From assembly GCA_043814315.1 (NCBI GenBank), contig JBDRKE010000010.1, forward strand, positions 2,896 through 66,895: 64,000 bases of DNA. The letters run 5' to 3'. The notes below the pieces were generated by a model. The model did not search any database. It was not told the DNA's origin and worked only from the letters and a program-made list of their open reading frames with translations. Origin of the DNA: Candidatus Omnitrophota bacterium (GTDB taxonomy: Bacteria > Omnitrophota > Gorgyraeia > Gygaellales > Profunditerraquicolaceae). The position numbers and the translations under genes are program-made. Of the stretch, positions 35,783 through 51,297 are shown in pieces; the stretch's first letter is position 1, and every line of letters begins with the position of its first letter.

Positions 35783-36796
35783 ATGAAGAAATATAATGTG
35801 GCCGTGGTGGGGGTGGGGGCGGTAGGGATTGAGATGCTGCGCTGCCTAAAGAAACGCCATTTTCCTATCCAGGAATTGCGGGTATTTGCGCGTTCAGCAA
35901 GAGATATTGAACTGGACGGTCAAAAATATTCCGTCCAGCCTGTTTCCGCGGAAGGCTTTGAAGGCATAGATATCGCTTTATTTGCGGGGACTGAAGGCGA
36001 AAAGGGTGCGGCGGTAACCTATGCCGCGGAGGCCGTTAAAAGAGGGTCTGTTGTTATTGATAATGGCGCGGATTTTAGAATGGACCCCGAGGTTCCTTTA
36101 GTTGTTCCTGAAGTCAATGCCAAAGATATAAAGAAACATAAAGGGATTATTGCGAACCCCAATTGTTCTACCATTCAGATGATGGTGGCCTTGTGGCCGA
36201 TTTACAAGAAAGCCGGCATAAAAAGGATCATTGTGACAACGCTGCAAGCTGCATCCGGTGCAGGCAGGGCTGCCGTGAGTCAGCTTAAAGAAGAGACCTC
36301 CATTATCGCCTCGCGCGGCTTTTCCACTCTCCATGTGCATATCAATAATAAAGCTATGCCCCAGCAGCTTGGCTTTAATGTTTTTCCGCATATCGGCAGC
36401 TTCGCAGAATGCGATTATACGAGCGAGGAATGGAAGCTTGTCCGCGAGACCCACAAAATTATGCATGATAAAAAAATCAAAATATCCGCTACCACGGTAA
36501 GGGTTCCTGTTAGGACCGGACACTCTGAATCTATATATATTGAAACCCATAAATCCATCAGCGAGGACAAAGCCAGAAGCTTTCTTTCCCGCGCCCCCGG
36601 CATTATCGTCATAGATGATCCGAAGAACAATCTCTATCCTATGCCTAAAGATGTTGAAGGTAAGGATGAGGTATTTGTGGGGCGTATCCGCAGGGATTGT
36701 TTCGTAAAAAATGGCCTATGGTTGTGGGTCGTAGCGGATAACCTGCTTAAAGGCGCTGCTCTCAATGCGGTCCAGATAGCTGAACGTCTCATCTAA
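35783..36796 (+). CDS. asd: Aspartate-semialdehyde dehydrogenase
   Basis: VAVVGVGAVG, NPNCSTI active-site Cys. ATG 35783 has a GAGG RBS. The tracked 35687 extension lies in the repeat. Confidence 0.9.
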   Translation: MKKYNVAVVGVGAVGIEMLRCLKKRHFPIQELRVFARSARDIELDGQKYSVQPVSAEGFEGIDIALFAGTEGEKGAAVTYAAEAVKRGSVVIDNGADFRMDPEVPLVVPEVNAKDIKKHKGIIANPNCSTIQMMVALWPIYKKAGIKRIIVTTLQAASGAGRAAVSQLKEETSIIASRGFSTLHVHINNKAMPQQLGFNVFPHIGSFAECDYTSEEWKLVRETHKIMHDKKIKISATTVRVPVRTGHSESIYIETHKSISEDKARSFLSRAPGIIVIDDPKNNLYPMPKDVEGKDEVFVGRIRRDCFVKNGLWLWVVADNLLKGAALNAVQIAERLI

Positions 36797-36834
36797 ACTC
36801 ACCTTTTTTGATTCCGCAAAATTCTCAGATATTC

Positions 36835-36864
36835 TTTAACTTATTTCTATTTATGTGTTATAAT
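36835..36864 (+). promoter_or_regulatory. Candidate extended -10 promoter (TGTTATAAT) for the GGDEF/pilus operon
   Basis: TG at 36856..36857 and TATAAT at 36859..36864, with a weak TTTAAC -35. An A/T hairpin lies at 36882..36910 in the 5' UTR. Confidence 0.35.
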
Positions 36865-36922
36865 AAATAATTAAATTTGATTTAACTAAAAAACCTTTTT
36901 TTAGTTATCCATTAACGCCTCT

Positions 36923-39900
36923 ATGGATAATATTCAGAACCCACAGAAAGAACCAGCAAAAGATATTCGTTTTGAAACCCCCACCTTTATTGACCCCTTA
37001 ACCGGGATGTATAACCGGTATTACCTGTTTCAATTCCTTCCCAAAGAGCTGGAAAAAGCAAGATTAGGCAATTATCCTTTGGCTTTTCTTATGATTGACT
37101 TGGACGGGTTTAAAAAGATCAATGATACGCATGGACATCTCTGCGGAGACGAGGTTTTAAAACAGCTTTCCGGAATTTTTAAGATGAGAATCAGAGCCAC
37201 GGATGCGATGGTACGCTACGCCGGTGATGAATTTGCGCTTCTTTTGCCTGCGGCGAATACAGAGAAAGCCAAGCTTATAGCGCAGCAATTAATCGATGAC
37301 GTACGCAACTTTAAATTCAAGGGGCCGGACAATCAGGAGCTACATAACACGTTGAGCATCGGTTACGCTATCTTTCCTGTTGACGCGGATGAACAATTCA
37401 AGTTGATTGACCTGGCGGATAAGGCCCTCTATCTGTCAAAACAAAAAGGCAAAAACCGGGTCAGCTATGCTAAGGATGTGACCCTGGAGGAAGTCAGTTC
37501 CTTGGTAGCTATGGATGCCTTCCCCTGCCGGAATTTTATTGACCGGGAACAAGAGCTGAATAAGCTTAAGCAGATTTATGAAATAGTCCTTGTTTCTAAT
37601 TCGCTTCAAGCTGCGTGTGTTTCAGGCTCAACCGGCATAGGCAAGAGCAGGATGCTTAGTGAACTCAGGAATCACCTACAGGATAAAGCGGCCATCATCA
37701 ATTGCGAGGGAACCCTGAGGCACGTGCAGGATCCGTATCATGCCCTTGCCCAAGGAATCGGGGATTATCTGGAAAGAATAAAGATGGATAGCTTGGACGT
37801 AAAAACAATTCTTTCTAGGGTACCATTTGAAGAATTGGCGGAACTGAGCCTGTTGGTTCCCCAGCTGGCAGGCCTGGTTGAGAAGCCCCAGCGCCCCGGG
37901 CTCGATAATAAGGCCCGTTTTCTGTTGTTTAAAGCTTTTCTGGACTTTTTATTTGAGCTAAACAAGCTTTCACCTGTTCTGCTGGTTTTTGACGATGTCC
38001 AATTTGTAGACAAGGCGAGTCTTGAGCTCGCAAGGTATCTCATTAAACAGGAAAAGAATAAGAAAATGTATCTTGTATTTTCTCTGAATCAGGAGAAATG
38101 GGTGGAATTAAACAAGGAAAGCGGCTTTCACGAATTATGGCCACAGATCAAATCCGGCGATAATTTCACAGAGATCATTCTCGGGAATCTTTCTAAAGAT
38201 GACTTGGTTAAGATGATTAACGTCATTTTTCCCAATTTAGGGGATTCCAGGGACTTTTTGGAAATAATGTACAGCACCACGTCAGGGAATCCCTGTTTTG
38301 TGGAAGAAATATTAAAATCCTTGCTGGAAAGTGGGTATATTATTTATCAAGAAGGCCATTGGCACTTGACCAAAGAAATAACCCCTCAGGATATTCCGGC
38401 CTCGCTTGAAGACGTGGTCAAAAGAAGAGTGAAAAATCTTGATGAAGAGACGAAGGAGATGATTCTCCAGGCAGCCGTTATCGGAGAAGCTTTTGATATG
38501 GATCTTTTAAAAAAGATGGGAAATCAAAACGAGGGATTCTTGCTGGAGCTGGTTCATCGTGCCAAAAAGATGCGCTTAGTCGATGAGAGGGATGTAGGTA
38601 AGTTTCAGTTTACCCACAAGAACGTGCAGGATGCCCTTTACAGCGAGTTGGGCGAGAGCCAGCGTAAGGAGCTTCACTACAGGATTGCCCAGACGCTAGC
38701 CGAACAGCATAAAGATAACCTCTACAATGTTGCCGGAGAATTGGCTTTTCATTTCAGCAAGGCGCCGCAAAACGAAGATACGCTTAAATACAACAGGGTT
38801 TTCTCGAATATGACTTCGGAGTTATTTGATTCTTACGAGATTATGGAAAGCCTGCAGAAGCTGGCCGAAGAAATCATATCGGGTGAAAAAGTTGAGCCTA
38901 TCGTTGAAATCACTGATGAAACAAGGGGGCAAGTGTTTTGTTTTATCGCAACGGTTCTGGGGGCTATTAAGAATTTCCGTCTCTATCCGTCTCACAGTTC
39001 TATGAGGGGCATAAGCATAAAGGAAGCCTACGAAGTACTCCGCGATATCTTTGACAGTAAGCAGGCAGAACGCATCGATATCAGCGAGGTAGAAAAGAGC
39101 CTGGTCATTAACGCCAAACGGATTTTTCCGAAAGAGCTTAGAAGGACAAACATCGAAGATCTTCTGTATCTTATCATGGACCGAAATATCAAAACGATTT
39201 CTTTTGCTAAAGGTTTGCAGGAGAAAGAGTTGAATAGCCTTATCGGATACCTCAGCCTCGATTATCAGGAAGTGATGAACCTGGGCAGCTGGAAAGACTT
39301 GCTTAAAAAAGAACACATAACTCATATTAAGATAGACGAGATAAAATTTACTCCTGTCGGGTGTTTAGGAAAACCGGGTTTCGAAGATAAGGGTAAACTG
39401 CAGGATGCCATGCTCATGGAATTCTTAATGGGTAAACTGGACCCCACGGCCGCAGATAAATCAGGAATATTAAAGGCTATGAGAAACGATCCCCAGAAAT
39501 TAGCCAAGGCGATCATGGAGATTGCTGAGAATGCAACAGCGCAAGGAGAGGCGGGGGATAAGGCGCAGGTCGTCAACAAGCTTATAGGCAAGATGCATGA
39601 TGAGGTTCTGACGGGTCAGCCCTTAGATAATTATGCGCGTGATTTGGCCAAAGTGATACTTGAGTTAGAGCCGGGATTAAGGAATAAGGTGATTCGTACG
39701 AAATTAGATAGTTCTGACCCCGGGGAAAAAGAGATGATGGAAAATGTAATGGTCGCCATACCGGATGAAGTTATCGTGGATATTATGGCTGAGGAGTATC
39801 GAAGAAATGCCGATAATCTATTGAAAGTAAGAGATTTCATTAAGGAAATGATCCCGGATGAATCCAGAAAAAAAATTCTTTTACCCAAATTGGAAGCCAA

Positions 39901-41005
39901 ATTAACAGAGTTGAATGCGAGCCGCGAAGAGGCATCTTTCCTTGTAGATAAACTCAAATGGGAGGAGCTGCCTGTTGATAAAAAAGTAAGCACTCTTATG
40001 GCATCATCAAAAGAGGGGAATTTTTTAGTAGAGAAGCCGAAGATAAAAGAGGTCTTGCAGCAGCTAAATGCCGCGCATAAGAAAGAGGAATTAGAAAATA
40101 GCGTATCCCAGCTATTCTCTTCAGCCAAACAACTGAGTTCTTTGGACCGCAAACAACTATTGGGCGTTATCGCTGATTTTGTAAAAATGGATTTTGCCAG
40201 TGATGCCCGCGAAGCTCTCGGTGTCATTGCGCGGACGGAAACTCTTTTAAAGAGATTAAAAACGGAAAAAGATCAGGAGGCCTTAAGGTTCCTTCTTGAT
40301 ATTTTTAGAGATATCATCCGTGATTTTGTGAAAAAATTTCAAGAAGCGAAGGATATTTTGGTGTTAGAAAATCCCTGGGCGAAGAATTATGGGCTGTTTG
40401 TTAACCGGCTTTTCTCTGCGCTCTTGGTGAGGCTCAGGCTCAATGAGGAAGCCGAGCGCGCCCTGAATGAGACGGTAAAGAACTTTATCTTGGAGATTGC
40501 GCGTGATAACTTTCTGGATATCCTGATTTATTGTTTTATCAATAGCAGCGCCCCGGAACCTTACGACATGAAGGAGTTTTACCAGTGGATGGGAGAGCCT
40601 CTCACGGACGGCCTCATTCATATGGAAACAGAGAGAGTGAACAGGATAACAGACCTTTTTAAGAAATACGTTTTTCAGACCAAGATTATTAAGATATTAA
40701 CGGATTTAGGGGAGGGCTCTATCGGCAGACTGAAATTGCTGGCTTATGAGGCCACGAAAAAAAGAGAGGTGAATCTTGCTTTGATAGAGTTGATGGGGTA
40801 TCTCAAGAATGAAGCCCTGATTGAGAGCATTTCGGCCTTTTTAGATTTCAAGGAGGCTTTTGTCCGTAGGAGCGCTATCCTGGCTTTGAGCGAAATCGCA
40901 TCGGAAAAAAGCCGGGAGATTCTTTCCTCTGTAACCAGGGAAGATAAAGATAAAGCTATTCGTGTTTTTGCAGGTGAGCAGCTAAGAAAAGTTCAGGAGG
41001 GTTAA
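36923..41005 (+). CDS. GGDEF-domain (AGDEF) / STAND-type P-loop ATPase / HEAT-repeat protein, 1360 aa
   Basis: DPLTGMYNR, DLDGFKKINDTHGH, RATD (RxxD) five residues before YAGDEF. Walker A GSTGIGKSR, Walker B LLVFDDVQ. C-terminal HEAT-like VRRSAILALSEI. Confidence 0.8.
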   Translation: MDNIQNPQKEPAKDIRFETPTFIDPLTGMYNRYYLFQFLPKELEKARLGNYPLAFLMIDLDGFKKINDTHGHLCGDEVLKQLSGIFKMRIRATDAMVRYAGDEFALLLPAANTEKAKLIAQQLIDDVRNFKFKGPDNQELHNTLSIGYAIFPVDADEQFKLIDLADKALYLSKQKGKNRVSYAKDVTLEEVSSLVAMDAFPCRNFIDREQELNKLKQIYEIVLVSNSLQAACVSGSTGIGKSRMLSELRNHLQDKAAIINCEGTLRHVQDPYHALAQGIGDYLERIKMDSLDVKTILSRVPFEELAELSLLVPQLAGLVEKPQRPGLDNKARFLLFKAFLDFLFELNKLSPVLLVFDDVQFVDKASLELARYLIKQEKNKKMYLVFSLNQEKWVELNKESGFHELWPQIKSGDNFTEIILGNLSKDDLVKMINVIFPNLGDSRDFLEIMYSTTSGNPCFVEEILKSLLESGYIIYQEGHWHLTKEITPQDIPASLEDVVKRRVKNLDEETKEMILQAAVIGEAFDMDLLKKMGNQNEGFLLELVHRAKKMRLVDERDVGKFQFTHKNVQDALYSELGESQRKELHYRIAQTLAEQHKDNLYNVAGELAFHFSKAPQNEDTLKYNRVFSNMTSELFDSYEIMESLQKLAEEIISGEKVEPIVEITDETRGQVFCFIATVLGAIKNFRLYPSHSSMRGISIKEAYEVLRDIFDSKQAERIDISEVEKSLVINAKRIFPKELRRTNIEDLLYLIMDRNIKTISFAKGLQEKELNSLIGYLSLDYQEVMNLGSWKDLLKKEHITHIKIDEIKFTPVGCLGKPGFEDKGKLQDAMLMEFLMGKLDPTAADKSGILKAMRNDPQKLAKAIMEIAENATAQGEAGDKAQVVNKLIGKMHDEVLTGQPLDNYARDLAKVILELEPGLRNKVIRTKLDSSDPGEKEMMENVMVAIPDEVIVDIMAEEYRRNADNLLKVRDFIKEMIPDESRKKILLPKLEAKLTELNASREEASFLVDKLKWEELPVDKKVSTLMASSKEGNFLVEKPKIKEVLQQLNAAHKKEELENSVSQLFSSAKQLSSLDRKQLLGVIADFVKMDFASDAREALGVIARTETLLKRLKTEKDQEALRFLLDIFRDIIRDFVKKFQEAKDILVLENPWAKNYGLFVNRLFSALLVRLRLNEEAERALNETVKNFILEIARDNFLDILIYCFINSSAPEPYDMKEFYQWMGEPLTDGLIHMETERVNRITDLFKKYVFQTKIIKILTDLGEGSIGRLKLLAYEATKKREVNLALIELMGYLKNEALIESISAFLDFKEAFVRRSAILALSEIASEKSREILSSVTREDKDKAIRVFAGEQLRKVQEG

Positions 41006-41011
41006 AGACAG

Positions 41012-41485
41012 GTGTCTTTCTACAGGACGACAAAAACAGAAATCGGAAAGTTTCTTTTGCAAAAAGGCCTCATCACAGCTGTTCAGCTTCAGGAGGCCTT
41101 GGCTCTTCAGCGCCACAAAGAGAAGGGTAAGCCTTTAGGCCAGATCCTCATAGAATTGGGTTATTTGGTCCGCGATGACTTGTGTTTTGTCCTGGCCATT
41201 CAATCAGGGTACCCTTATATTGACATCAGAAGGTGCCTGATAGATGCAGAAACCCTTTCTCTGATACCGGAGATTATGATCAGGAAATACCGGGTATTTC
41301 CGATAGACAAGATTCAGGATGTCGTGACCATTGCGATGGTTAATCCTTTAGATAGCGGTGTGATCGAACAGATTCAGGAAATGCTTAAAAGCAACATAAA
41401 GGTTTTTTTAACGTCATCCAACGACCTGGCAGAATTGATTTCGCGGTATTTTGTAAAAACGAAAGGCCCGCAAGAATCCGAATAG
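41012..41485 (+). CDS. Stand-alone GspE-N / MshEN-like N-terminal domain protein, ended by an in-frame TAG
   Basis: Two tandem 24-residue xLGxxLLxxGLIxxxxLxxxLxxQ skeletons plus a T2SSE_N-like LIPEIMIRKYRVFPI region. GTG start 8 nt after AGGAGGG. Confidence 0.7.
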   Translation: MSFYRTTKTEIGKFLLQKGLITAVQLQEALALQRHKEKGKPLGQILIELGYLVRDDLCFVLAIQSGYPYIDIRRCLIDAETLSLIPEIMIRKYRVFPIDKIQDVVTIAMVNPLDSGVIEQIQEMLKSNIKVFLTSSNDLAELISRYFVKTKGPQESE

Positions 41486-41488
41486 CCG

Positions 41489-42730
41489 ATGAAAAATATC
41501 CCGCAGGATGAATTTAAAGCCCAGGAGAGAATAGGATTTGAGATTTCCAAAAAGCTCCTTGAGCAGGATCCTTTGGTGCGTACGGTAGCTGAGATTATCA
41601 GCGACGGCATCTCCAAGCGCGCCAGCGATATCCTCATTGAGCCCTTGCAGGATCAACTACAGGTCCGTTATCGCATAGATGGAGTGCTCTATAAAAACCT
41701 ATCTTTAGACAAAACCTTGCATGAAGGGGTTATCAGTAGGATTAAAGTCATGTCTGGATTAGACATCAGCGAGCACCGTCTGCCCCAGGATGGCCGGTTT
41801 AAGATGGTTTTCTCTGAGAAAGAAGTAGATACGCGGGTTTCCGTTATCCCGACGCACTTAGGAGAAAAGATTGCCTTGAGGGTACTTGATAAAGAAACCA
41901 TTATTCTTGATATCGCTAAGTTAGGCCTGGACACGCGCTCCTTAGAATTATTCAAGCGTAATCTCCATAAGCCTTATGGAATGATCCTTGTGTGCGGGCC
42001 CACCGGTTCCGGCAAGACCACTACACTCTACGCGGCTTTAAAATACATTGATTCTATTGAAAGAAATATTGTTACCGTAGAAGACCCTATTGAATACCAG
42101 ATCAGCGGCATCAATCAAGTGTCCGTTCGTGAGGATATCGGCTTGACCTTTGCCTCGAGCCTGCGCTCTATTTTAAGACAGGACCCCAATATCATTCTCG
42201 TAGGAGAGATCAGGGATTCTGAGACTGCAGATATCGCCGTCAAAGCCGCTTTAACAGGCCACCTGATCCTAAGCACTCTCCATACCACCTCTGCCACAGC
42301 CTCCATTATCAGGCTGGTCAATATGGGGGTTGAGCCTTTCCTGATTGCCTCCAGTTGTCTTTTAATGGCTTCGCAAGTTCTGGTGCGCGCACTCTGTCAC
42401 CAGTGCAAAGAGAGCTACCATCCTCCGGAAATGTTCCTGAATGAACTTAAAAACCTTAATATCGAAGTTCCGAATGACCTGGTGCTTTACCGGCCCAAGG
42501 GCTGTAGTTTCTGCAGTCAGACAGGATTTAAGGGCAGGGTGGCGATTATGGAGAGCTTAGAGATAACCAATAATATAACGGAATTGATTATTAAAGGGGC
42601 TTCGGAAAAGGATTTCAAAGAGAGAGCCAAGGGAGAAGGCCTGAGGACTCTAAGAGAGAATGGCTTAGGGATCGTCCTTAATGGAAAGACGTCCTTTGAG
42701 GAGATTTTAAGAGTGAGTACTTCTACCTGA
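41489..42730 (+). CDS. PilB/GspE-type secretion ATPase core (no N-domain), in frame with the preceding ORF
   Basis: RLPQDGRF, GPTGSGKTTT, DPNIILVGEIRD, TGHLILSTLHT, CHQC...CSFC tetracysteine. Confidence 0.85.
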   Translation: MKNIPQDEFKAQERIGFEISKKLLEQDPLVRTVAEIISDGISKRASDILIEPLQDQLQVRYRIDGVLYKNLSLDKTLHEGVISRIKVMSGLDISEHRLPQDGRFKMVFSEKEVDTRVSVIPTHLGEKIALRVLDKETIILDIAKLGLDTRSLELFKRNLHKPYGMILVCGPTGSGKTTTLYAALKYIDSIERNIVTVEDPIEYQISGINQVSVREDIGLTFASSLRSILRQDPNIILVGEIRDSETADIAVKAALTGHLILSTLHTTSATASIIRLVNMGVEPFLIASSCLLMASQVLVRALCHQCKESYHPPEMFLNELKNLNIEVPNDLVLYRPKGCSFCSQTGFKGRVAIMESLEITNNITELIIKGASEKDFKERAKGEGLRTLRENGLGIVLNGKTSFEEILRVSTST

Positions 42731-42743
42731 TAAAACCTTTAAG

Positions 42744-44435
42744 ATGGACTTGGATAAATTTAAAAAGATTTTACAATCCTTAAAGCTTTCAAAATCGCAG
42801 TTTCCGGTTGACGATACCGCGCAGGTTTTGCAGCCGCATATGAAAGAGGCCCAGGAAGAAGAAAACATGCTCTCTCTGGCCAAGGAGCTTGACATTCCTC
42901 CCATCAGGCTCTCTAAATACCTGATTGATATAAAATTACTGGAATTAATCCCTGAGGAGACGGCACGCACGTATTACATGATTCCGTTGGCAAGACTGGA
43001 GCAGAGAGTGACCATTGCCGTTGTCGACCCGTTTAATATTGTGGTAATTGATATGGCCAAGTCTTTGTTTCAGACGGAGATCTATGTGGTTATTGCGACG
43101 GCCTCGGATATCACCAGGGCCATCAATAAATATTACACTATGCTGTCTCTGGAGGGCCAGCCCGCTCCGGTTGTTTCTTCCCTGTCTTTAAAAGAAGACG
43201 CTGTCAAGATTGAGGCTGTGGTGACTCAAGAGGAGGCAGAGGAAGATATTGTTGAAATACAGAAGAGGGTCCAAGAAGCACCCATCATTCAGTTAGTCAA
43301 TACGATCTTTAGTGAGGCGCTCAAATTAAGAGCCAGCGATATCCATATTGAACCCTTTCCAGAACAGACACGGATGAGATACCGCATTGACGGTATTTTG
43401 CATGAGATGCAGGCGATCCCTAAAGACTTGGAAAGGGCTGTGATTGCCAGGATTAAGATCATGTCCAATCTGGATATCACTCAGAGAAGGCTGCCTCAGG
43501 ACGGCAGGCTTTCCTTAAACTTAGAAAAAAAAGAACTCGATTGCCGCGTTTCCATCCTTCCCGTGCACTCCGGAGAGAAGGCGGTTTTGCGTTTGTTAGA
43601 AAAAGGGGCCATGCTGATCGATTTGGAAAAGTTGGGTTTTTCTCCCAGCGCTTATGGAGCCTTTAAAAAAGCCGTCACCCAGCCGCACGGCATGATCCTC
43701 TTGACCGGCCCCACCGGCAGCGGGAAATCCACCACGCTTTACGCGATGTTAAATACACTGGACAGGATAGAAAAGAATATCATCACCATCGAGGATCCTG
43801 TGGAGTATCAGATGGCCGGCATCACCCAGATTCACGTAAAGCCCGAAATTAACCTGACCTTTGCCAAGGCACTGAGGTCCATCTTGCGGCAGAATCCCAA
43901 TATCATTATGATCGGCGAAATAAGGGATTTTGAGACCGTTGATATAGCCATGAAGGCCGCCTTGACAGGCCACCTCATTTTGAGCACGCTCCATACAAAT
44001 GATGCCCCCAGCGCCATTGTGCGGCTGATGAATATGCAGGTAGAGCCGTTTTTGATTTCCTACACTTTATTGCTTGTGGCAGCGCAAAGGTTGTGCCGCA
44101 GGATTTGTTCCTTCTGTAAAGAGCCTTATAATTTTCCAGCCGAGAATCTTTTGGGGTTGCCGCCTGACGTCACTCAAAAAATCGTTACGTTATATAAAGG
44201 AAAAGGCTGTGCGCGTTGTAATCATACGGGATACTATGGTAGAATCCCGGTTGTTCAGGCCTTACTGATTGATGATACGATACGGGAGATGATCTTAAAA
44301 AAGGTTCCGCTTATTGAGATACGCGATTATGCGCACACTCAAGGCATGAAAACACTAAGAGAGGATGCGATAGAAAAAGTCCTAAAGGGAGAGATTTCTT
44401 TAGAAGAGGCCCTTCGCATCACGCCTGAGGGATAG
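42744..44435 (+). CDS. pilB: Type IV pilus assembly ATPase PilB (full length)
   Basis: T2SSE_N region (LIPEETARTYYMIPLA), GPTGSGKSTT, NPNIIMIGEIRD, TGHLILSTLHT, CSFC...CARC. Confidence 0.9.
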   Translation: MDLDKFKKILQSLKLSKSQFPVDDTAQVLQPHMKEAQEEENMLSLAKELDIPPIRLSKYLIDIKLLELIPEETARTYYMIPLARLEQRVTIAVVDPFNIVVIDMAKSLFQTEIYVVIATASDITRAINKYYTMLSLEGQPAPVVSSLSLKEDAVKIEAVVTQEEAEEDIVEIQKRVQEAPIIQLVNTIFSEALKLRASDIHIEPFPEQTRMRYRIDGILHEMQAIPKDLERAVIARIKIMSNLDITQRRLPQDGRLSLNLEKKELDCRVSILPVHSGEKAVLRLLEKGAMLIDLEKLGFSPSAYGAFKKAVTQPHGMILLTGPTGSGKSTTLYAMLNTLDRIEKNIITIEDPVEYQMAGITQIHVKPEINLTFAKALRSILRQNPNIIMIGEIRDFETVDIAMKAALTGHLILSTLHTNDAPSAIVRLMNMQVEPFLISYTLLLVAAQRLCRRICSFCKEPYNFPAENLLGLPPDVTQKIVTLYKGKGCARCNHTGYYGRIPVVQALLIDDTIREMILKKVPLIEIRDYAHTQGMKTLREDAIEKVLKGEISLEEALRITPEG

Positions 44436-44440
44436 ACATG

Positions 44441-44625
44441 AGAAATCCCAATTTCCAAATCCCAAATCCCAAATCCCAATGTCCGAAACTTGCCATCTCA
44501 AGATCGGGTCTTGGAATTGGGGTCTTGGAATTGCTTGGTGCAAAACAAGTTACAAGACCCGATCTTGAGCAGAATTGGAATTTGCCTGCCTGCCGCCAGG
44601 CAGGGTGCTTGGAGCTTGGAATTTA
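44441..44625. repeat. Composite repeat: family-2 arms enclosing a family-1 hairpin and a GCCTGCCTGCCGCCAGGCAGGG core
   Basis: AATCCCAA words at 44441..44480, family-1 stem at 44498..44568 with an internal GGGTCTTGGAATTG duplication, core at 44584..44606. Confidence 0.8.
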
Positions 44626-44644
44626 ATCAATATTCGACTTTAAA

Positions 44645-45859
44645 ATGGCTATATTTAAATACACCGCCGTTGATTATGTGGGCCGAAAGGTGCATGGCCG
44701 CATCAAGGCCAAAGACAGGGCCAGCGTCGTTAGCACGTTAAGAAAAGGCCAGCTTTACATTATCTCCATTGTCGAGATAGATGAGAAAAAGGCATGGCTC
44801 TTCGCACAAAAGAGAATGGTCAGGCCTGAGGAGCTCATGGTTTTTTCCCGGCAGTTATCAGCTTTGGTTAAAGCTGGAATCCCCTTGGTCAAAAGCCTGA
44901 ATACCCTTTTTAATCAGGTAGAAAATCGCCATTTCAAAGAAATCATTTCGACGATCTTCACCGATATCGAAGCCGGCAAGAGCTTATCGGATGCCTTGAG
45001 TTCGCATCCTGAAACCTTCCCTCCTTTATATATCAACTTGATCAGGGCAGGGGAGGTCAGCGGTGCCCTGGAAGTCATTCTCGAGCGTCTCTCCAGTTAT
45101 CTGGAAGGGGCCACGAAACTCAACCGCAAGGTAAAATCCGCTTTCATTTATCCGGCCGTTGTCTTGGCCTTTGCTTTTTTAATCACCGCCCTGATTCTTC
45201 TTAAAGTGATACCGAGTTTTAAAAATATCTACGATCAGATGGGTGCCCGATTGCCTATTCCGACACAGGTCGCGATTAAATTCAGCGATTGGACAAAACA
45301 GTATTTTCTGGTGTTCCTGGTTGCCACGCCCTTGCTCTTTTTTCTCTTTAAGTTCCTCATGCACCAACCCGCCTTTCGTCTGAAATGGGATAAATTCAAG
45401 CTTAATATGCCCGTGTTCGGGTTGCTCTTACGTAAAGTCATTATTGCGCGCTTTGCCCGGACCCTGGCCACACTTTTAAGGAGCGGGGTGCCTATTTTTT
45501 CGGCTCTGGATACCGCCAGTAAAACTTCAGGGAACAGGGTGGTGGAGATGACCTTGGAGCAGGTCAGGATGCAGGTTAGCAAAGGTGAAAAAATCGCCGA
45601 TTCCCTTACGCAATCCAACGTTTTTCCTCCGCTTGTCGTCAATCTCATTGCCGTGGGTGAAGAGACAGGGGAACTCCCCGGGATGCTGGAAAGGGTGGCT
45701 TTATTTTATGAGGATGAGGTGGATAGCTCCGTATCGGGCCTGACGTCCTTAATTGAACCATTTATCATCATTTTTTTAGGGGTGGTTATCGGTGGGATAG
45801 TCCTGGCGATGTTTCTGCCTATTCTGCAATTGACCAGACTGGTAGGTGGGGCAAGATAA
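44645..45859 (+). CDS. pilC: Type IV pilus platform protein PilC (T2SS F family)
   Basis: Duplicated T2SSF architecture, three TM segments, 404 aa. Confidence 0.9.
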   Translation: MAIFKYTAVDYVGRKVHGRIKAKDRASVVSTLRKGQLYIISIVEIDEKKAWLFAQKRMVRPEELMVFSRQLSALVKAGIPLVKSLNTLFNQVENRHFKEIISTIFTDIEAGKSLSDALSSHPETFPPLYINLIRAGEVSGALEVILERLSSYLEGATKLNRKVKSAFIYPAVVLAFAFLITALILLKVIPSFKNIYDQMGARLPIPTQVAIKFSDWTKQYFLVFLVATPLLFFLFKFLMHQPAFRLKWDKFKLNMPVFGLLLRKVIIARFARTLATLLRSGVPIFSALDTASKTSGNRVVEMTLEQVRMQVSKGEKIADSLTQSNVFPPLVVNLIAVGEETGELPGMLERVALFYEDEVDSSVSGLTSLIEPFIIIFLGVVIGGIVLAMFLPILQLTRLVGGAR

Positions 45860-45868
45860 GGAAGCGAC

Positions 45869-48700
45869 TTATGAGCCCTGGGTTTGGCTGTTGAAATAGC
45901 TCTGTGTGATAAATCTCCAGATAGAATTGCCGGTTACGCCTAATGTCGCTGCGTAATTGCTTTGCAGGGGCACGGCACTGCTGAGTTTACTGTCATAGAC
46001 CAAATACCGGTCAGGGGATGAGCCTCCTAAGCGAGCGCCGTTCGATTGAATATAGGAGGAACTCGGCGCTAAGCGGCCCCTATAATTCCAGGTGGCCTCT
46101 GCAGCATCTAAGGCTGCCATGTAATCCGCATACTCCGGATGGTCATCGTCAATAGCATATAAGTCTAAGATAGTGCCGGTAATATACTTATTGGCCTGCT
46201 TTTCTTGATCACTCGCGTTAATATAATACCAGTTTTCCAACGAATCGTTGAGAGGGTAAGAAGTGATAAACAGAGAGGTGTAGTGGTATTCTGTTTTGTC
46301 ATTATCGGTGTCTTTATCCGTCAGGTCAGCCACTCGATTGACAGGTTTTATCTTTTTGGCATGCTGGCTTTGCTTCTCGTCCACTGTTTGTGTTATCCAG
46401 GTCTGGACATCGCTGGGAAGGTAACTTTCATTGCCCCGCAGCCACTTTCCGTTCCCTAAGGCAGGGTTCCCCTCTTTCATAAGAAACACAACTTTACCGC
46501 TAGACGTATCCGCCTTCACATAGACATAAGGGTAATCTGTATAGACGGCAAAATCAGCCAGGCGAGAATCATCAAAGTTATCGGAGAGCGTGTAAACAAC
46601 CTTTTGAGTCGCAATATTGGATATTTTCCAATTGGCATCATTTTCTTCAGGGGAAGCCTTGGAATCATAATTATAGTCTCCTTTTAAATAGACGCTTTCT
46701 TCCGAGATCACCGTAAATACGGCTTTTCCTCCGCTAGAATTCTGGCCAGGCAAGGTTTCTGCATTGGAAAAACGTATGGGGAATTTCGTGTAAAGGATGC
46801 CATTGGAGGGCGCATTGCCTTGTTTATTCATTTCCCCGATATCGATATCGATGACTGTGATGGGTTGGCTGGTCTGCCAGTTGTAAAAGGTAACTTTTTT
46901 GGCGATCTCCTGTTTGGAGGCGTTCAAATTTTGTATGACCGCATCCACGTTATCCTCATCTATATAAATCCCCTGCGCCTGAGCGCTCACTTTGTACATG
47001 CTGTCCTTTGAGCCGTCGTCAAATAAACTTTTTGAATAGTCTTCGCTGACCTCACTTCCCAAGAACACCTCTTTTCTCTGTGTATTCGGCAGGATAACCC
47101 CGCTCATGTAATCCCTGGCTAAGAGAGACGCGTATTGCGCAAAACCCTCCAGCTGCCTGGTAGCATCAAAGGCGCGTATCTGCCGATAGGGATTCTCAGG
47201 GTCATTGGCATCTTCTCCGTAAGTATAATTGGAGAAAAACTCCGGATTGTGGTCATAGTCTTTTGGGACGATATGGTCATAATAGGGTGCGCCATTATAG
47301 ATATAATCCTGGGCTTTTACATATTGGGCGCCAGGATTATTATAGCAGGTATCATTCGTACAGGTTGCGCCATCAAGTTGTTTAAGATACCTCCAGCCGG
47401 TTGAGGTGTAGCTAGGGTCATCGGGTTTGGGTGCGTATTGGCAGCCGGCGCTGCTTCCAGCGCATTCTTGCGTCGTATAAAAAGTAACCGGCGTCTCCGT
47501 GCTGTAAGCATTAGCGTATTTTTGCCAAGGATATGTCTGGGGTAGGGCACCGGGCAGTTCATACCAGGTATTTTCATTAAGATTACCCCAGCTATCTTGA
47601 TAAGGTTGGAAATAGACATTCCCGTATAAATAATCTCTTGCGCCTAATCTTTCCGTTATGCTCAGGCTTCCGCCGGCAAGATCCGATAAATAGAATCTTA
47701 CCACGTTAGCCTGCTGGTCCACAGGGGGTTGTCTACTCTGGTAATTTCCATCTTTTTTCAAATAATAATTTCCCGAGGTCGGGTAGGACGTTTCATAATA
47801 CTGGTTGCCGTAAAAAAAGTTTTCTTCACCCCTGGCAATGGCGGGTACGTTATTTCCCCAACCGCCTCCCACCCAGCTGCCGTAGGATTTCCAGGCCGGA
47901 TAATAGTAGGGCGTGCACACTCCGCTTACACAGACATTTTGCCGCGCCCAGTACTTAAAAGGCCCTGGCGTAACGGAGGTGTTATCAGTCGTATAATAGT
48001 GATTGGATTCTAAGGAAGGGGCAGGGGCCATTCCGTCCACAGCGCCGTCTAGACTGTCAATATAATGCGGAGCCGGATAAAGGTTGGATTGCGCATATTT
48101 GATGGTTCCGCTGGTCGACAACTGCATGATTTGGCCAAGGCGGACGTAATTGCCCTTAAAGGTGACATCTCCGTTAATATGTATCTTTCCGCCATTGCAG
48201 GGAATAAGGCTATCATAGCCGGAGAGCGGAAAGTTGGTGTTTGAATTCTTAAACATCACGTATTGATAAAGGGGAGAATTGGGATGATAGATGAATTCTG
48301 AATATTGCGAGTTCTGCGGATTGTCCTCTGCGCCTTTAAAGGCATGCATATACATATTGATAGTTCCCGAGTATGTGACGTAAGCGCGGAAATTAAATCC
48401 GGGCAATCTGTAAAAATGGTCGGAAGAAGAGATGCCGGCTCCCTTGAGGCGGCAAACCGTGTTGGAAACGGTATTCCAGCTCATCGGCGGAAGGGCATGG
48501 AGCTCTTCCCATAAACAGGCGGTTTTTGCCGCCTCCAGATCGTACGACGTCTGCATGTCACTGGCAAAACGCCTTTGCAGGAGGCTGTTGTTTATATAAT
48601 AATTCCAGGAGACCTCGGCAAAAACAACCAGAAAGACGAGCATGAGAAGAGTGATAATAATGGCTATGCCTTTATTGTTGGTTTTTCTTGTTTTTTTCAT
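45869..48700 (-). CDS. Giant PilX_N-type pilus-associated protein (943 aa), Tyr/Asn/Trp-rich putative tip adhesin
   Basis: N-terminus KGIAIIITLLMLVFLVVFAEV resembles the PilX N-terminal anchor. AGGAGA RBS. Last gene of the minus-strand pseudopilin operon. Confidence 0.65.
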   Translation of the reverse strand: MKKTRKTNNKGIAIIITLLMLVFLVVFAEVSWNYYINNSLLQRRFASDMQTSYDLEAAKTACLWEELHALPPMSWNTVSNTVCRLKGAGISSSDHFYRLPGFNFRAYVTYSGTINMYMHAFKGAEDNPQNSQYSEFIYHPNSPLYQYVMFKNSNTNFPLSGYDSLIPCNGGKIHINGDVTFKGNYVRLGQIMQLSTSGTIKYAQSNLYPAPHYIDSLDGAVDGMAPAPSLESNHYYTTDNTSVTPGPFKYWARQNVCVSGVCTPYYYPAWKSYGSWVGGGWGNNVPAIARGEENFFYGNQYYETSYPTSGNYYLKKDGNYQSRQPPVDQQANVVRFYLSDLAGGSLSITERLGARDYLYGNVYFQPYQDSWGNLNENTWYELPGALPQTYPWQKYANAYSTETPVTFYTTQECAGSSAGCQYAPKPDDPSYTSTGWRYLKQLDGATCTNDTCYNNPGAQYVKAQDYIYNGAPYYDHIVPKDYDHNPEFFSNYTYGEDANDPENPYRQIRAFDATRQLEGFAQYASLLARDYMSGVILPNTQRKEVFLGSEVSEDYSKSLFDDGSKDSMYKVSAQAQGIYIDEDNVDAVIQNLNASKQEIAKKVTFYNWQTSQPITVIDIDIGEMNKQGNAPSNGILYTKFPIRFSNAETLPGQNSSGGKAVFTVISEESVYLKGDYNYDSKASPEENDANWKISNIATQKVVYTLSDNFDDSRLADFAVYTDYPYVYVKADTSSGKVVFLMKEGNPALGNGKWLRGNESYLPSDVQTWITQTVDEKQSQHAKKIKPVNRVADLTDKDTDNDKTEYHYTSLFITSYPLNDSLENWYYINASDQEKQANKYITGTILDLYAIDDDHPEYADYMAALDAAEATWNYRGRLAPSSSYIQSNGARLGGSSPDRYLVYDSKLSSAVPLQSNYAATLGVTGNSIWRFITQSYFNSQTQGS

Positions 48701-48878: not shown

Positions 48879-49454
48879 CTAGTTACGAGGGGTGATCTTA
48901 ATAGTGGTATTATAAGTGATATTTTCAGGCAAGGATATGCCTTCATAACTGCCGATGGAAAAATTAAATGATAATTCGTATTGAGTAGGAGTCGGGTGTG
49001 TGACTGTAAAATTGGAAAGGTTCCGTGCAATCACGCTTGTGGCTCCAGTAGGATTTCCCGCTACATCAACAATCTGTCTTTCCAGCTGGGTGCCGTTTCG
49101 GGCATAAGAGATGTAGTTGGTAAATGATTGGTCAGCGCCAAAGGAGATTTCTCCTCCTATTTGGATGATTAATTGGCCGTTGGCATCTACAAGAGGAGTC
49201 TGAAATCTTATGGATCCGGCATCCCAATAAATATTTGTCGATTTAGCCTCCAGGAGTTCGCGCATGGTTTTTGAAATAGCCAGCCTTGCCTGAGAATTGA
49301 TATAGATGGCGGCTCCAGCGACAGAATTGGAGGTGCGGCTTGAGACAGTCGAGATTATTACCAGGTAGGTGATTATCGTAAAGACCGCCAAAGCCACCAG
49401 AAGCTCCATCAGGGTGATAGCCGTAGAACCTAACGCTCGGTGTTTCGGTCTCAT
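48879..49454 (-). CDS. Prepilin-type N-terminal domain minor pilin / pseudopilin
   Basis: GSTAITLMELLVALAVF: ITLMEL places Glu at +5 if cleavage follows Ala. Confidence 0.7.
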   Translation of the reverse strand: MRPKHRALGSTAITLMELLVALAVFTIITYLVIISTVSSRTSNSVAGAAIYINSQARLAISKTMRELLEAKSTNIYWDAGSIRFQTPLVDANGQLIIQIGGEISFGADQSFTNYISYARNGTQLERQIVDVAGNPTGATSVIARNLSNFTVTHPTPTQYELSFNFSIGSYEGISLPENITYNTTIKITPRN

Positions 49455-49470: not shown

Positions 49471-49977
49471 CTAATGCCGCATAATCAAAGTGGATAACTG
49501 CGTCTCAGAGTTTATTTTTCCGTCACTATTAGTATCTTCTTGGGAATCCAATGCCCCATTCAGATTCCGGTCCTCTCCTATAATGGTGTTACCTGACTTA
49601 TAACAGACGACCACCTCGACCTTCACTAGGTCCGAAAGGACGTTATCATCCGCATCGCGCATCCTTTCCACATAATAAACCCCTGATATATCTTCACCCT
49701 CCGGTACTATTTCGCTCTCTTCCGGGAACGAATTGCGCCTTGGATTTTCTTCGCCCGGGATATAGGCAGCCGGAAGGAGGAAGTTAAGAAAATCAGAATT
49801 CTTGAGGTATTCCATTCCATTCTGGCATATTTCCCAGGACTTGAGGCTTTGCGTATCCTGGGCGATACCCCAAAAGATTCCGGGATAAAGGGAGGCCAAG
49901 GCTCCCACGGCCACGACCATAATAAAAATAGCGACGAGCACCTCCAAAAGACTTAATCCTCCCTGATTTCTCTTCAT
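49471..49977 (-). CDS. PilV-like minor pilin with a C-terminal Ca-binding-like loop pair
   Basis: MKRNQGGLSLLEVLVAIFIM (G/LSLLE prepilin motif), then DRNLNGALDSQEDTNSDGKINSE. Confidence 0.8.
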   Translation of the reverse strand: MKRNQGGLSLLEVLVAIFIMVVAVGALASLYPGIFWGIAQDTQSLKSWEICQNGMEYLKNSDFLNFLLPAAYIPGEENPRRNSFPEESEIVPEGEDISGVYYVERMRDADDNVLSDLVKVEVVVCYKSGNTIIGEDRNLNGALDSQEDTNSDGKINSETQLSTLIMRH

Positions 49978-50121
49978 AAGGACCTCACTTGTAGTGTATC
50001 ATATCTGTGTCATAAATCAACCGTGGTACTGAGCACTTCGCTTTCGCTCAGTGTCCTTCGGCGAAGTGTCCTAAGCCTGCCGAAGGAAGCAGCGTTCACC
50101 CTTTCCCCCTTCATGCAGGTC

Positions 50122-51234
50122 TTAAGGATTGAATTCTTCGAAGATCAATCGTTCATTTTTGGCGTCAATCTTGACCACGAAATTTTCCAAAAAACTCATG
50201 CCTAATAAACCCTCTATTTCCTGGGGTTCGCTGCTTTCCAAGACAGCGGCTCTAACGTTTTTGACTTCAGTATCCCCCACTCTTACGCTCTTCAAGGTAA
50301 CAGGATACGTAGGTATCTTTTTGCCATCCGCCAGTGTCAGAAAAAGGGAGGGGTTTTGGCGCGAAGTGTCGAGTCCGATTTGATCGGCGATATCTCTGGA
50401 TAGCACCACGAGACTGGCCCCTGTGTCGACCATGAGTCGCGTCTTGAAATGGCCGTTCAGTAAGACCTCTACGACGATATTCAGGCCCAGCCGCTGGAAG
50501 CCCACCGGATATTTTGTAAAATCGCTCTCAAAGATGTCCAGTTCTTTTGCAACACCCTTAAAGAAATACGCATCTTTGCCGCTCGCCTCCCCAGAAGGGG
50601 CGTTAAACTTTTTAGAGAACCTGTTTCTGAACAAACCCATTTCTCGGATAAAATCCGAGATGTTTTTATCAAGAAGCTTCATCTTCTTTTTCTGCTGTAG
50701 GACGTTATATTCAGACAGTTTTATCTTTGCCATCATGGAATTGAATTCATTGACGAGGGCGTTGTATTTTTCCAGATTATCTTTTGGTTTTAGGCCGCCA
50801 AGCTGATCGCTGACTAGGGCTAAACGGCTGTTGAGTTCAAGCAGGTTCTTTTCCAACTGCTGTGATTCCTTTAGGATCTTATCCTTTTCTTTTTTGCTTT
50901 GTAACGCCTGGCCCCTCAAGTTTTTGAGATTCTCAAAATCAGCGGCCAGGTCCAAAAGGCTCTTCGGGATGAATTGCGGCTGGGAAAAATATCTGGTATT
51001 CCAGCTTTCAACTAAACGTTCCTGTTCTTGGGGATCATACCTGCGGATGGAGGCGATATTCTTTTTTTTAAGGGCGATCTTGCCGTATCCCAAATGGAGG
51101 CTCACCCTGTCTTTATCCTCTTTTTCTATGATCCCTTCGATGCTTTCACCATTTTTCAAATAGACCATATCGCCGAAGGCCGTGCTTGAAAAGAGGCCAA
51201 AGAATAACACCATGGATAACAACCAGAGAGGCAT
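50122..51234 (-). CDS. Secreted retropepsin-like (clan AA) aspartic protease-domain protein with a coiled-coil middle
   Basis: Start set at MPLWLLSMVLFFGLFSSTAFG (signal peptide). C-terminal MVDTGASLVVLS D-T-G-A motif. Confidence 0.65.
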   Translation of the reverse strand: MPLWLLSMVLFFGLFSSTAFGDMVYLKNGESIEGIIEKEDKDRVSLHLGYGKIALKKKNIASIRRYDPQEQERLVESWNTRYFSQPQFIPKSLLDLAADFENLKNLRGQALQSKKEKDKILKESQQLEKNLLELNSRLALVSDQLGGLKPKDNLEKYNALVNEFNSMMAKIKLSEYNVLQQKKKMKLLDKNISDFIREMGLFRNRFSKKFNAPSGEASGKDAYFFKGVAKELDIFESDFTKYPVGFQRLGLNIVVEVLLNGHFKTRLMVDTGASLVVLSRDIADQIGLDTSRQNPSLFLTLADGKKIPTYPVTLKSVRVGDTEVKNVRAAVLESSEPQEIEGLLGMSFLENFVVKIDAKNERLIFEEFNP

Positions 51235-51297
51235 CGATTTTCCTTTTACAACAATTATAGCGTCAAGGGAATCAAAAGTCAATTTCAAAGATTTCTC

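Follow-up and report, generated by a model that had tools for sequence, protein, structure and literature searches.

An MshEN-domain protein and a PilB-type ATPase core are encoded by two adjacent genes in a type IV pilus operon of Omnitrophota

Gene content of the operon

The window analysed here, which is the whole stretch of 64,000 nucleotides taken from contig JBDRKE010000010.1 of a Candidatus Omnitrophota bacterium (GCA_043814315.1), carries a type IV pilus operon with the gene order AGDEF cyclase-STAND-HEAT, MshEN, N-less PilB-1, PilB-2 (devoid of the c-di-GMP subdomain) and PilC. The first gene (36923..41005, + strand) encodes a diguanylate-cyclase-type protein of 1360 aa and ends 6 nt upstream of the MshEN gene. 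Its product combines, according to Pfam, a GGDEF domain (138.7 bits), a STAND-type AAA_16 NTPase and C-terminal HEAT repeats (HEAT_2). The N-terminal GGDEF domain presents an I-site together with an AGDEF active-site variant (RATD-AMVRY-AGDEF), in which the RxxD lies five residues upstream, and this RxxD-x5-AGDEF arrangement was invariant in 12 of the 12 orthologous loci examined. It was previously demonstrated that the AGDEF diguanylate cyclase VCA0965 of Vibrio cholerae makes c-di-GMP (PMC3974145), and by likeness to this enzyme the operon protein can possibly act as a cyclase, although only the AGDEF variant is shared, the domain context being unrelated and the window protein adding the STAND NTPase and the HEAT repeats. 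In a promoter and terminator scan of positions 36500..46200, candidate counts did not exceed those of shuffled sequence, and the only plausible operon promoter in that scan was TTAACT-17-TATAAT at 36836..36864, before the cyclase gene.

The second gene (41012..41485, + strand) starts with GTG and encodes a protein of 157 aa that was assigned to the MshEN/GSPII (T2SSE_N) family both by homology over a domain of approximately 145 residues and by fold, as evaluated by Pfam, homologue searches, profile alignment, AF2 and Foldseek. The Pfam MshEN model (PF05157) matched residues 66-149 with 68.8 bits (cut-off 23.1), and the protein is laid out as a four-helix subdomain with two degenerate 24-residue repeats of the c-di-GMP type, followed by an alpha/beta subdomain (residues ~66-149). 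A profile of the family aligned over positions 3-145 to residues 2-143 of PDB 5HTL (E 5.8e-22), over positions 9-150 to residues 24-165 of Geobacter PilB (E 1.6e-30), and end to end with the GSPII domains of PilF. Additionally, the AF2 model (pLDDT 86.9) placed helices at residues 3-17, 23-35, 42-48 and 54-64 ahead of the alpha/beta part, and Foldseek returned 5HTL as the best match to this model, with the top 20 matches being all MshEN/GSPII domains, PilB N-domains or XpsE N-domains. The product of this gene is thus a free-standing MshEN/GSPII domain.

The third gene (41489..42730, + strand), which ends with TGA, encodes a PilB/GspE-type hexameric ATPase of 413 aa, here called the PilB-1 core, consisting of N2 and the C-terminal ATPase domain. 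The Pfam T2SSE model (PF00437) matched it with 438.5 bits over profile positions 4-370, and the Walker A (GPTGSGKT), Asp box (VTVEDPIE), Walker B (IILVGEIRD), His box (GHLILSTLH) and tetracysteine (CxxC...CxxC) motifs were all found, being intact in each of 11 core-only proteins. Aligned to the full-length PilB-1 proteins of sister operons, with 56-58% identity, the core corresponds to residue ~154-179 onward; it begins in the N1-N2 linker, and no N1/MshEN domain is present in the same chain. The gene therefore encodes a PilB-type ATPase without an MshEN domain, predicted from its motifs to be catalytically intact. In phylogenetic terms, the core-only clade received 99.5% bootstrap and grouped with PilB-1 in 65% and with PilB-2 in 0% of replicates; the Walker A ending GKT is common to the core-only clade and PilB-1, while PilB-2 has GKS. 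PilT and PilU retraction ATPases are hexameric and lack N1/MshEN, just like the PilB-1 core; however, the 413-aa protein is a PilB by phylogeny, placed in a clade with PilB-1 and with the PilT-like proteins as a distant outgroup, and it keeps the tetracysteine motif that is absent from PilT-like proteins. A regular expression for the PilT motif AIRNLIRE found no match, PilT-like proteins included, and was not used as a test.

The second PilB paralogue, PilB-2 (42744..44435, + strand), is of full length (563 aa), is terminated by TAG and was matched by Pfam MshEN at residues 49-131 and by T2SSE. It retains only the C-terminal half of MshEN, matching positions 53-148 alone of the N-domain profile; the two-repeat four-helix part is missing, and the repeat skeleton was not found in it. 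The PilC/GspF platform protein (44645..45859, + strand; 404 aa; Pfam T2SSF, 215 bits) is the last of the conserved five-gene cassette and follows PilB-2 in all related loci that extend this far, except for L090. Other type IV pilus genes, recognised by Pfam, lie close by within 49471..55950, namely a pilin-like gene with an N-methylation motif (49471..49977, - strand), PilO (52236..52823, + strand), a secretin (53285..54832, + strand) and PilM (54928..55950, + strand). Among those window ORFs that were scanned, none was PilT-like; sister operons present a PilT-like gene of 352-356 aa at the corresponding place.

A true stop codon between two genes

The MshEN gene and the PilB-1 core gene are separated only by the stop codon TAG (41483..41485, + strand) and a spacer of 3 nt, CCG (41486..41488, + strand). 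The first-pass annotation had described both ORFs as lying in a single frame, with a combined length close to that of PilB, and had assigned a GspE-N/MshEN domain to the first and the ATPase core to the second. These coordinates were confirmed (41489-41012 = 477 = 159 codons), the two domain assignments are supported by Pfam, and a product ignoring the TAG would have 572 residues, compared with 563 aa for the adjoining PilB. From this layout it had been proposed that one PilB is cut by the TAG, either by a recent nonsense mutation, by an error, or at a site of read-through or recoding. Nevertheless, sharing a frame has no weight alone, because adjacent genes do so one time in three.

Among the homologues of the first ORF, 57 of 58 were free-standing (139-159 aa, 48-100% identity), while the best 70 homologues of the core were all core-only proteins of 384-428 aa with T2SSE alone, full-length proteins being first seen at 58% identity or lower. 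In 15 related loci, which sample 13 distinct species (one for the pair L082/L083 and one for the pair L004/L088), the two genes are always adjacent yet separate, with the first one ending in TAA or TAG and with spacers of -14, -8, 2, 4, 5, 8, 14, 25 or 57 nt. Every frame relation is represented among these loci; all species but one (12 of 13) show an offset of 1 or 2, and in the exception, the L004/L088 species, the spacer is in frame but contains an additional in-frame TAA. The orthologues of the first gene end at the same place, so that where the earlier proposal looked for a sense codon, a stop was encountered in every relative. In the four closest loci (70-79% identity for the MshEN protein, 80-84% for the core) the spacer has 4 nt and the genes are out of frame (+1). 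The common frame in the window thus results from a spacer of 3 nt where the nearest relatives have 4 nt, and is a coincidence without functional meaning. Since the earlier annotation had itself taken orthologues consistently encoding two genes with non-aligned junctions as evidence against its proposal, and this is the situation in the relatives, the idea of a single gene is refuted.

A recent nonsense mutation, leaving a pseudogene or a newly disrupted PilB, would account for the single frame, for the presence of just the TAG and one codon between the ORFs and for the PilB-like joined length. However, all relatives, including those of only 42% identity, have their stop at this same place, with junctions out of frame and of varying lengths, and no close relative has an intact single gene, all of them being split. 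Moreover, with dN/dS values of ~0.11 for the MshEN gene and 0.05-0.10 for the core gene, and with saturated synonymous sites, both genes are, as judged by these ratios (0.05-0.11), under purifying selection rather than relaxed selection, and the catalytic motifs are all intact. The comparison of orthologues refutes this explanation, to which we attach a negligible probability.

Programmed read-through or recoding of the TAG (e.g., by pyrrolysine or a suppressor tRNA), yielding a fused PilB of 572 aa, is equally far from being credible. The in-frame layout would suit it, and in E. coli, termination at TAG is weak when the next base is C. Nonetheless, the in-frame layout is not conserved, as relatives have TAA at this point, and their junctions are in the +1 or +2 frame, overlap, or contain further in-frame stops; therefore no conserved fused product is possible. 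In the window itself, the TAG is an ordinary terminator: among 43 ORFs, 24 end with TAA, 14 with TAG (PilB-2 included) and 5 with TGA, and the TAG-ended ones have lengths fitting their families. Reassignment of TAG genome-wide, which had also been raised, was rejected on this stop-codon usage and on the finding of no tRNA gene in the window. Sporadic leaky read-through in this genome alone, if any, would be incidental.

Finally, the TAG might have been made by a sequencing or assembly error, considering that the source is a metagenome-assembled genome; yet a stop at the same position in every relative leaves this hardly any probability, and the GenBank annotation of the contig already has two genes, a hypothetical protein, ABIG31_01600 (P0001), and a GspE/PulE family protein (P0059). 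Therefore, the TAG at 41483..41485 is the true terminator of the first gene, and 41012..41485 and 41489..42730 are two real genes, each with its own start and stop, in a type IV pilus operon conserved in an Omnitrophota clade. Among the options considered earlier, the one that proved right was a functional two-piece arrangement with a start at ATG 41489. The in-frame TAG is thus quite ordinary, a genuine stop between tightly packed operon genes, and represents neither a pseudogene, nor a recoding site, nor an assembly error in the annotation.

Origin of the separate MshEN gene

Two old, conserved genes, taken together with the origin and function discussed below, make up the explanation that, as a whole, is with fairly high confidence the best one. 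In relation to the origin, it is likely that the stand-alone MshEN gene predates the truncation of the ATPase, and that PilB-1 in the window clade then lost an N-domain that had become redundant. It is improbable that the MshEN protein originated as the N-terminus of the downstream ATPase and became detached, because in sister operons a full-length PilB-1 is preceded by a stand-alone MshEN gene: in the sister cassettes L085-L087, L011, L012, L016 and L020, a stand-alone MshEN protein of 147-167 aa is encoded directly before PilB-1 with its own N-domain. When these loci were evaluated with a profile built from the MshEN proteins of the window clade, the stand-alone protein received, in all 7 loci, a higher score than the N-domain of PilB-1 itself.

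An ancient fission represents the alternative: in the ancestor of the clade, a full-length PilB-1 would have broken into two genes at its N1-N2 linker and the older upstream stand-alone MshEN gene would have been lost, so that the MshEN protein of the window would be the detached N-terminus of the ATPase. In agreement with this, the lengths of the MshEN protein and the core sum to that of a normal PilB, and it is precisely in the N1-N2 linker that the core begins. Furthermore, reciprocal HMMs found the MshEN proteins of the window clade equally close to generic fused PilB N-domains and to the sister stand-alone proteins, and NJ trees of the N-domains did not separate a stand-alone from a fused origin, a single stand-alone clade receiving 22% bootstrap. 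Orthology of the window gene with the sister stand-alone genes is thus not provable by sequence alone, and since the reciprocal HMMs do not discriminate, the argument on the origin is built on synteny and parsimony, together with the decay seen in the repeats of the PilB-1 N-domains. On these grounds a fission appears unlikely: it needs two events, the split and the loss of a stand-alone gene at the same position, versus one deletion; the preference of the profile scores for stand-alone proteins goes against it; and the present PilB-1 N-domains, those of the closest full-length relatives included, have lost the repeat Gly and Gln that are kept by all the stand-alone proteins, the window one among them.

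c-di-GMP binding and possible roles of the MshEN protein

The MshEN domain of V. cholerae MshE (PDB 5HTL; Wang et al. 2016, PMC5013675) shares with the window protein the fold of a four-helix part, bearing a tandem pair of 24-residue repeats, and an alpha/beta part (Foldseek TM 0.61-0.69), and the hydrophobic/Gly/Gln skeleton is present in both repeats of the window protein. On the other hand, in MshE the domain constitutes the N-terminus of the ATPase, whereas in the window it is a separate 157-aa protein, and the spacer between repeats has 5 residues in MshE and 7 in the window protein. The two repeats reported by the first-pass annotation, with the leading Arg replaced by Glu in one and by Pro in the other, were verified at residues 10-33 (EIGKFLLQKGLITAVQLQEALALQ; Arg to Glu) and 41-64 (PLGQILIELGYLVRDDLCFVLAIQ; Arg to Pro), the leading Arg being consequently gone from both. 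They begin with E-I-G and P-L-G, respectively, and the relaxed motif of Wang et al., applied in full, is matched by repeat 2 but not by repeat 1, in which position 1 is Glu. The strict motif RLGxx(L/V/I)(L/V/I)xxG(L/V/I)(L/V/I)xxxxLxxxLxxQ in tandem was found in 0 of 57 family members, but when position 1 was ignored, the relaxed-motif skeleton was kept in both repeats in 41 of the 57. In the family, the residues replacing the leading Arg are mostly Lys in repeat 1 and Pro or Leu in repeat 2, and the N-terminus and the inter-repeat spacer are basic.

It was demonstrated that binding by MshEN is chiefly hydrophobic and that Arg9 changes cost at most 5-fold in affinity (PMC5013675). MshEN-like domains include binders and non-binders, as exemplified by the homologous GSPII-A/B/C modules on the pilus ATPase PilF of Thermus thermophilus (PDB 6F8L, 8PDK, 9G1W), of which some bind c-di-GMP and GSPII-A does not (PMC11731258, PMC12002112), for reasons invisible in the motif (PMC12002112). 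In the AF2 model, helix 1 of the window protein begins before the repeat and in this resembles GSPII-A, although the pLDDT of this extension is low. Binding of c-di-GMP by the window protein is, therefore, uncertain as judged from its repeats. PilF is the best overall sequence match of the family (E = 2.7e-50 summed, with four matched stretches spanning three domains); however, its modules are covalently joined in a 900-aa chain, while in the window the module is encoded by its own gene, next to an ATPase devoid of such modules.

Other systems present partial likenesses. In the PilB-PilZ-FimX complex of Xanthomonas citri (PDB 7LKM-7LKO; PMC8389850), the c-di-GMP input reaches the extension ATPase via separate proteins acting in trans, and the PilB N-domain of this complex matches the window protein structurally (TM 0.63-0.68). 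There, the sensor is the EAL-domain protein FimX, the adaptor is PilZ and PilB has its N-domain, whereas in the window the separate protein is MshEN itself. In E. coli, a dedicated diguanylate cyclase, DgcJ, serves the MshEN receptor NfrB, a glycosyltransferase, in local c-di-GMP signalling (PMC8669469), but this pair differs from the window in having a polysaccharide synthase as output, the MshEN domain fused to the effector and another cyclase architecture. The cyanobacterial receptor CdgR was also considered as a precedent for a stand-alone MshEN protein and was rejected, as the available part of its source gives no link to MshEN.

The 3-nt spacing could couple the translation of both genes, by termination followed by re-initiation; since no clear Shine-Dalgarno sequence precedes ATG 41489, we only infer such coupling. 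Likewise, a link between the MshEN protein and either ATPase is inferred from their adjacency and co-conservation only. The free MshEN protein would then provide in trans what other PilB/MshE proteins have in cis, docking to the ATPase and/or to the PilM/PilC platform, and sensing c-di-GMP from the co-encoded cyclase, so that a locally made signal would gate pilus assembly by one or both ATPases. This combination of coupling, action in trans and local gating is put forward tentatively, with slightly less than even confidence.

[quoted passage not shown] Throughout an entire Omnitrophota clade, the pilus operon encodes this domain as a separate small protein, together with a dedicated AGDEF cyclase, and in this operon neither PilB paralogue holds a complete MshEN domain; in the literature on stand-alone MshEN proteins and on Omnitrophota pili or PilB, no description of such an arrangement was found. 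If the free MshEN protein does bind c-di-GMP and dock to ATPases, receptor and motor would be naturally separated, which would aid the study of how MshEN controls PilB-type ATPases, the fused proteins being hard to dissect. Omnitrophota are uncultured, and any test therefore needs heterologous expression. A more elaborate reading, in our view rather improbable, is that the MshEN module has been uncoupled from both motors, PilB-1 being N-less and PilB-2 devoid of the repeat subdomain. One diffusible MshEN protein, loaded with c-di-GMP by the AGDEF-STAND-HEAT cyclase, would pick the ATPase for the PilM/PilC platform, and the N-less PilB-1 might replace the PilT-like ATPase; if so, the operon would be an example from nature of a type IV pilus motor designed with its "regulatory domain in trans".

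Junction between the MshEN gene and the core ATPase gene

The MshEN gene (41012..41485, + strand) starts with GTG, encodes 157 aa and ends at TAG 41483..41485, which a single CCG codon separates from the ATG at 41489 of the PilB-1 core ATPase gene (413 aa, ending at 42730). The start-to-start distance of 477 nt corresponds to 159 codons, placing both ORFs in one frame, and this layout and its coordinates were confirmed exactly as described in the first-pass annotation. Its domain assignments also agreed with Pfam, which placed PF05157 (MshEN) on residues 66-149 of the small protein (68.8 bits) and covered the core ORF with the complete T2SSE ATPase model PF00437 (438.5 bits), and the two 24-residue MshEN repeats were indeed found, one spanning residues 10-33 and carrying Glu in place of the Arg of MshE, the other spanning residues 41-64 and carrying Pro.

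The central idea of that annotation, namely one PilB gene interrupted by TAG through nonsense mutation, sequencing error or read-through, did not hold: six agreeing lines of evidence demonstrated that the two ORFs are not a single broken gene. Of the 58 homologues retrieved with the 157-aa protein as query, 57 have 139-159 aa and 48-100% identity; the named homologues among these matches all belong to Omnitrophota, and the 100% match is the GenBank protein of the same contig. The family alignment reaches a common end position, followed by short, variable, polar tails. Likewise, the 70 best matches of the 413-aa protein (58-100% identity) are all 384-428 aa long and carry the T2SSE domain only, and homologues with an N-terminal MshEN domain enter the list only at identities of 58% or lower.

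The orthologue comparison, set beforehand as the refuting test, was run on 15 related loci from 13 distinct species (L082/L083 and L004/L088 represent one species each) and revealed separate genes with non-aligned junctions. The small gene directly precedes the core-only ATPase in 15/15 loci and stops with TAA or TAG, while the spacer measures 4 nt (L081-L084), 5 nt (L001, L002), 14 nt (L003, L005) and, in the remaining loci with a spacer, 8, 25, 57 or 2 nt, and the genes overlap by 14 nt in L009 and by 8 nt in L090. In all related species but that of L004/L088, the second gene is shifted in frame by +1 or +2 relative to the first; the L004/L088 spacer, in frame and 57 nt long, contains another TAA. 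Since the four closest loci (70-79% identity for the MshEN protein and 80-84% for the core) have a spacer of 4 nt, against 3 nt here, the shared frame is a one-nucleotide accident.

Additionally, TAG is an ordinary terminator in the window, where it ends 14 of 43 ORFs, PilB-2 included; in a TAG-ended isopropylmalate-dehydrogenase-type gene, Pfam matches reach to within 5 residues of the stop. Both genes are under purifying selection, with dN/dS of ~0.11 for the MshEN gene and 0.05-0.10 for the core at saturated synonymous sites, and the Walker A, Asp box, Walker B, His box and tetracysteine motifs are intact in 11/11 core-only proteins. TAG 41483..41485 is thus the normal stop between two old, conserved, translationally close-packed genes, and their common frame is due to chance.

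Operon organization and origin of the gene pair

The pair belongs to an operon whose gene order is the same in all related loci that extend far enough to cover it. Upstream lies a 1360-aa protein (36923..41005) in which Pfam recognized GGDEF, STAND-type AAA_16 NTPase and HEAT repeats, and downstream follow PilB-2 (42744..44435, 563 aa), adjoining the core gene, and PilC (44645..45859), with successive intergenic distances of 6, 3, 13 and 209 nt. In the related loci, the products are a GGDEF-STAND(-HEAT) protein (1332-1418 aa), an MshEN protein (142-159 aa), a core-only ATPase (397-430 aa), a second PilB (531-569 aa) and, except in L090, PilC (~400 aa). The RxxD-x5-AGDEF motif of the GGDEF domain is invariant across 12 loci, and the AGDEF variant is active in V. 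cholerae VCA0965 (PMC3974145). The 413-aa protein starts within the N1-N2 linker of a normal PilB and has all parts required for ATP hydrolysis. PilB-2 of this clade matches only MshEN profile positions ~53-148, repeat 1 and the greater part of repeat 2 having been lost, which leaves the free protein as the sole complete MshEN module of the operon. No description of a stand-alone MshEN together with an N-less PilB was found in the literature; the new part is this clade-wide operon variant, in which a free MshEN and a putative AGDEF-STAND-HEAT cyclase accompany a PilB-1 without N-domain and a PilB-2 without repeats.

Additional pilus genes (pilin-like, PilO, secretin, PilM) occur at 49.4-56 kb; the scanned window ORFs include none that is PilT-like. 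Between pilC and the pilin-like gene (49471..49977) lie ORFs of 943 aa (45869..48700, -) and 191 aa (48879..49454, -) without Pfam match, and L088 has similar unannotated ORFs (190 and 814 aa) behind a weak N_methyl gene; these ORFs could encode pilus-associated proteins such as minor pilins or a tip adhesin.

Among full-length proteins, those closest to the core (56-58% identity) were located in sister Omnitrophota operons, which encode a HAMP-GAF-GGDEF protein with a degenerate GGDEF motif, a PilT-like ATPase (352-356 aa), a stand-alone MshEN (147-165 aa), full-length PilB-1 (570-576 aa), full-length PilB-2 and PilC; L011, L012, L016 and L020 resemble them. As the free MshEN lies directly upstream of PilB-1 there too, this arrangement predates the window's clade. 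The sister head proteins carry SESQF (L085, 3774..5198), GDYQF (L086, 3989..5410) and VLDKF (L087, 176..1594) in place of GGDEF and are therefore probably not cyclases; the window-clade protein retains RxxD-x5-AGDEF.

In neighbor-joining trees of ATPase cores, the core-only clade (99.5% bootstrap) joined PilB-1 (65%) and never PilB-2 (0%), and it shares the Walker A GKT with PilB-1, versus GKS in PilB-2. The MshEN profile of the window's clade scored sister stand-alone proteins above the N-domain of PilB-1 itself in 7/7 loci (155 versus 110 bits in L085), and the repeat Gly and Gln, kept in every stand-alone protein, are lost in PilB-1 N-domains. By parsimony, these findings suggest that the MshEN gene quite probably descends from the old stand-alone gene, PilB-1 having shed an N-domain that had already decayed; on this reading, the gene does not represent the N-terminus that the downstream ATPase lacks. 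Two results temper this view: a single stand-alone clade received weak support (22%) in the N-domain tree, and generic fused PilB N-domains give the window-clade proteins equally high scores. Fission of PilB-1 followed by loss of the older stand-alone gene is therefore an alternative, albeit an unlikely one.

The free MshEN protein and its proposed role

The small-protein family profile aligned end to end with solved MshEN/GSPII domains, namely those of T. thermophilus PilF (E 2.7e-50), Geobacter PilB residues 24-165 (E 1.6e-30) and V. cholerae MshEN (PDB 5HTL, residues 2-143; E 5.8e-22). The AlphaFold2 model (pLDDT 86.9) comprises four helices followed by an alpha/beta subdomain, its best structural match being 5HTL, followed by the PilF GSPII domains and the X. 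citri PilB N-domain of the PilB-PilZ complex. Since both sequence and fold match, membership in the MshEN family is established.

Such stand-alone proteins are not rare in sequence databases, since 30,859 of 1.84 billion representative proteins were found to contain MshEN when searched by profile, and the best 150 of these include 23 single-domain proteins of 145-178 aa, besides many multi-MshEN architectures. In an unclassified MAG (L010, 207..2627), a 366-aa protein with N-terminal MshEN precedes a 411-aa core-only PilB-type ATPase and PilC; this core falls outside the window's core-only clade and is apparently an independent case. Two tandem stand-alone MshEN genes (158 and 156 aa; L014, 5977..7101) and a single one adjoining anti-sigma-antagonist-like and response-regulator-like ORFs (L023, 6010..6462) have no secretion ATPase nearby.

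Regarding c-di-GMP binding, the strict RLG...Q motif is found in 0/57 family members, with Lys (23), Glu (13) or Arg (4) at position 1 of repeat 1 and Pro (16), Leu (14) or another residue at that of repeat 2, all of which counts against binding. In its favor, the hydrophobic/Gly/Gln skeleton of both repeats is retained in 41/57 members, the N-terminus and inter-repeat spacer are basic, and MshEN binding is mainly hydrophobic, with Arg9 changes lowering affinity at most five-fold (PMC5013675). PilF GSPII-A, a non-binder for reasons beyond the motif (PMC12002112), calls for caution in this prediction.

The five operon genes would be co-transcribed, and translational coupling is suggested by the gap of just 3 nt and the absence of a clear Shine-Dalgarno sequence ahead of ATG 41489. 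Working in trans, the free MshEN protein would dock onto the core ATPase, the PilM/PilC platform or both, in the manner of the N1 domains of GspE and PilB. Provided that it binds c-di-GMP, it would also pass on the signal of the putative cyclase encoded in the operon. An equally serious alternative is that it serves as an adaptor or inhibitor that needs no nucleotide. In function, the closest parallels are the X. citri PilB-PilZ-FimX complex, where the signal is delivered in trans, and E. coli DgcJ-NfrB, where an MshEN domain is found with a dedicated cyclase.

Other features of the window

Two giant uninterrupted ORFs carry glycolysis/gluconeogenesis enzyme domains. The first (1018..5997, +; 1659 aa) has two FBPase_3 (PF01950) regions, at residues ~507-830 and 1284-1469, and the second (6056..13312, +; 2418 aa) combines a near-complete phosphoglycerate kinase domain (411-816) with an enolase N and C domain pair (1826-2287) in the same chain; their inter-domain stretches (~400-1000 aa) gave no Pfam match even at E <= 1. 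The 22-mer TGTGCTTTGMCATTTGAAWTTT, containing TTGACA, occurs five times in the window (24877..24898 and 32745..32766, +; 58410..58431 and 59601..59622, -; 59668..59689, +) versus 0 expected in shuffles. In three cases, the 22-mer sits 5-46 nt ahead of a gene's ATG (genes 24904, 32772 and 59736), and the element may be a shared promoter or regulatory sequence. Finally, tandem CGAACTT-type heptamer repeats (cgaacttcgaacttcgaactacgaact, ~27022..27051) directly precede a plsX-like gene (27052..28044).
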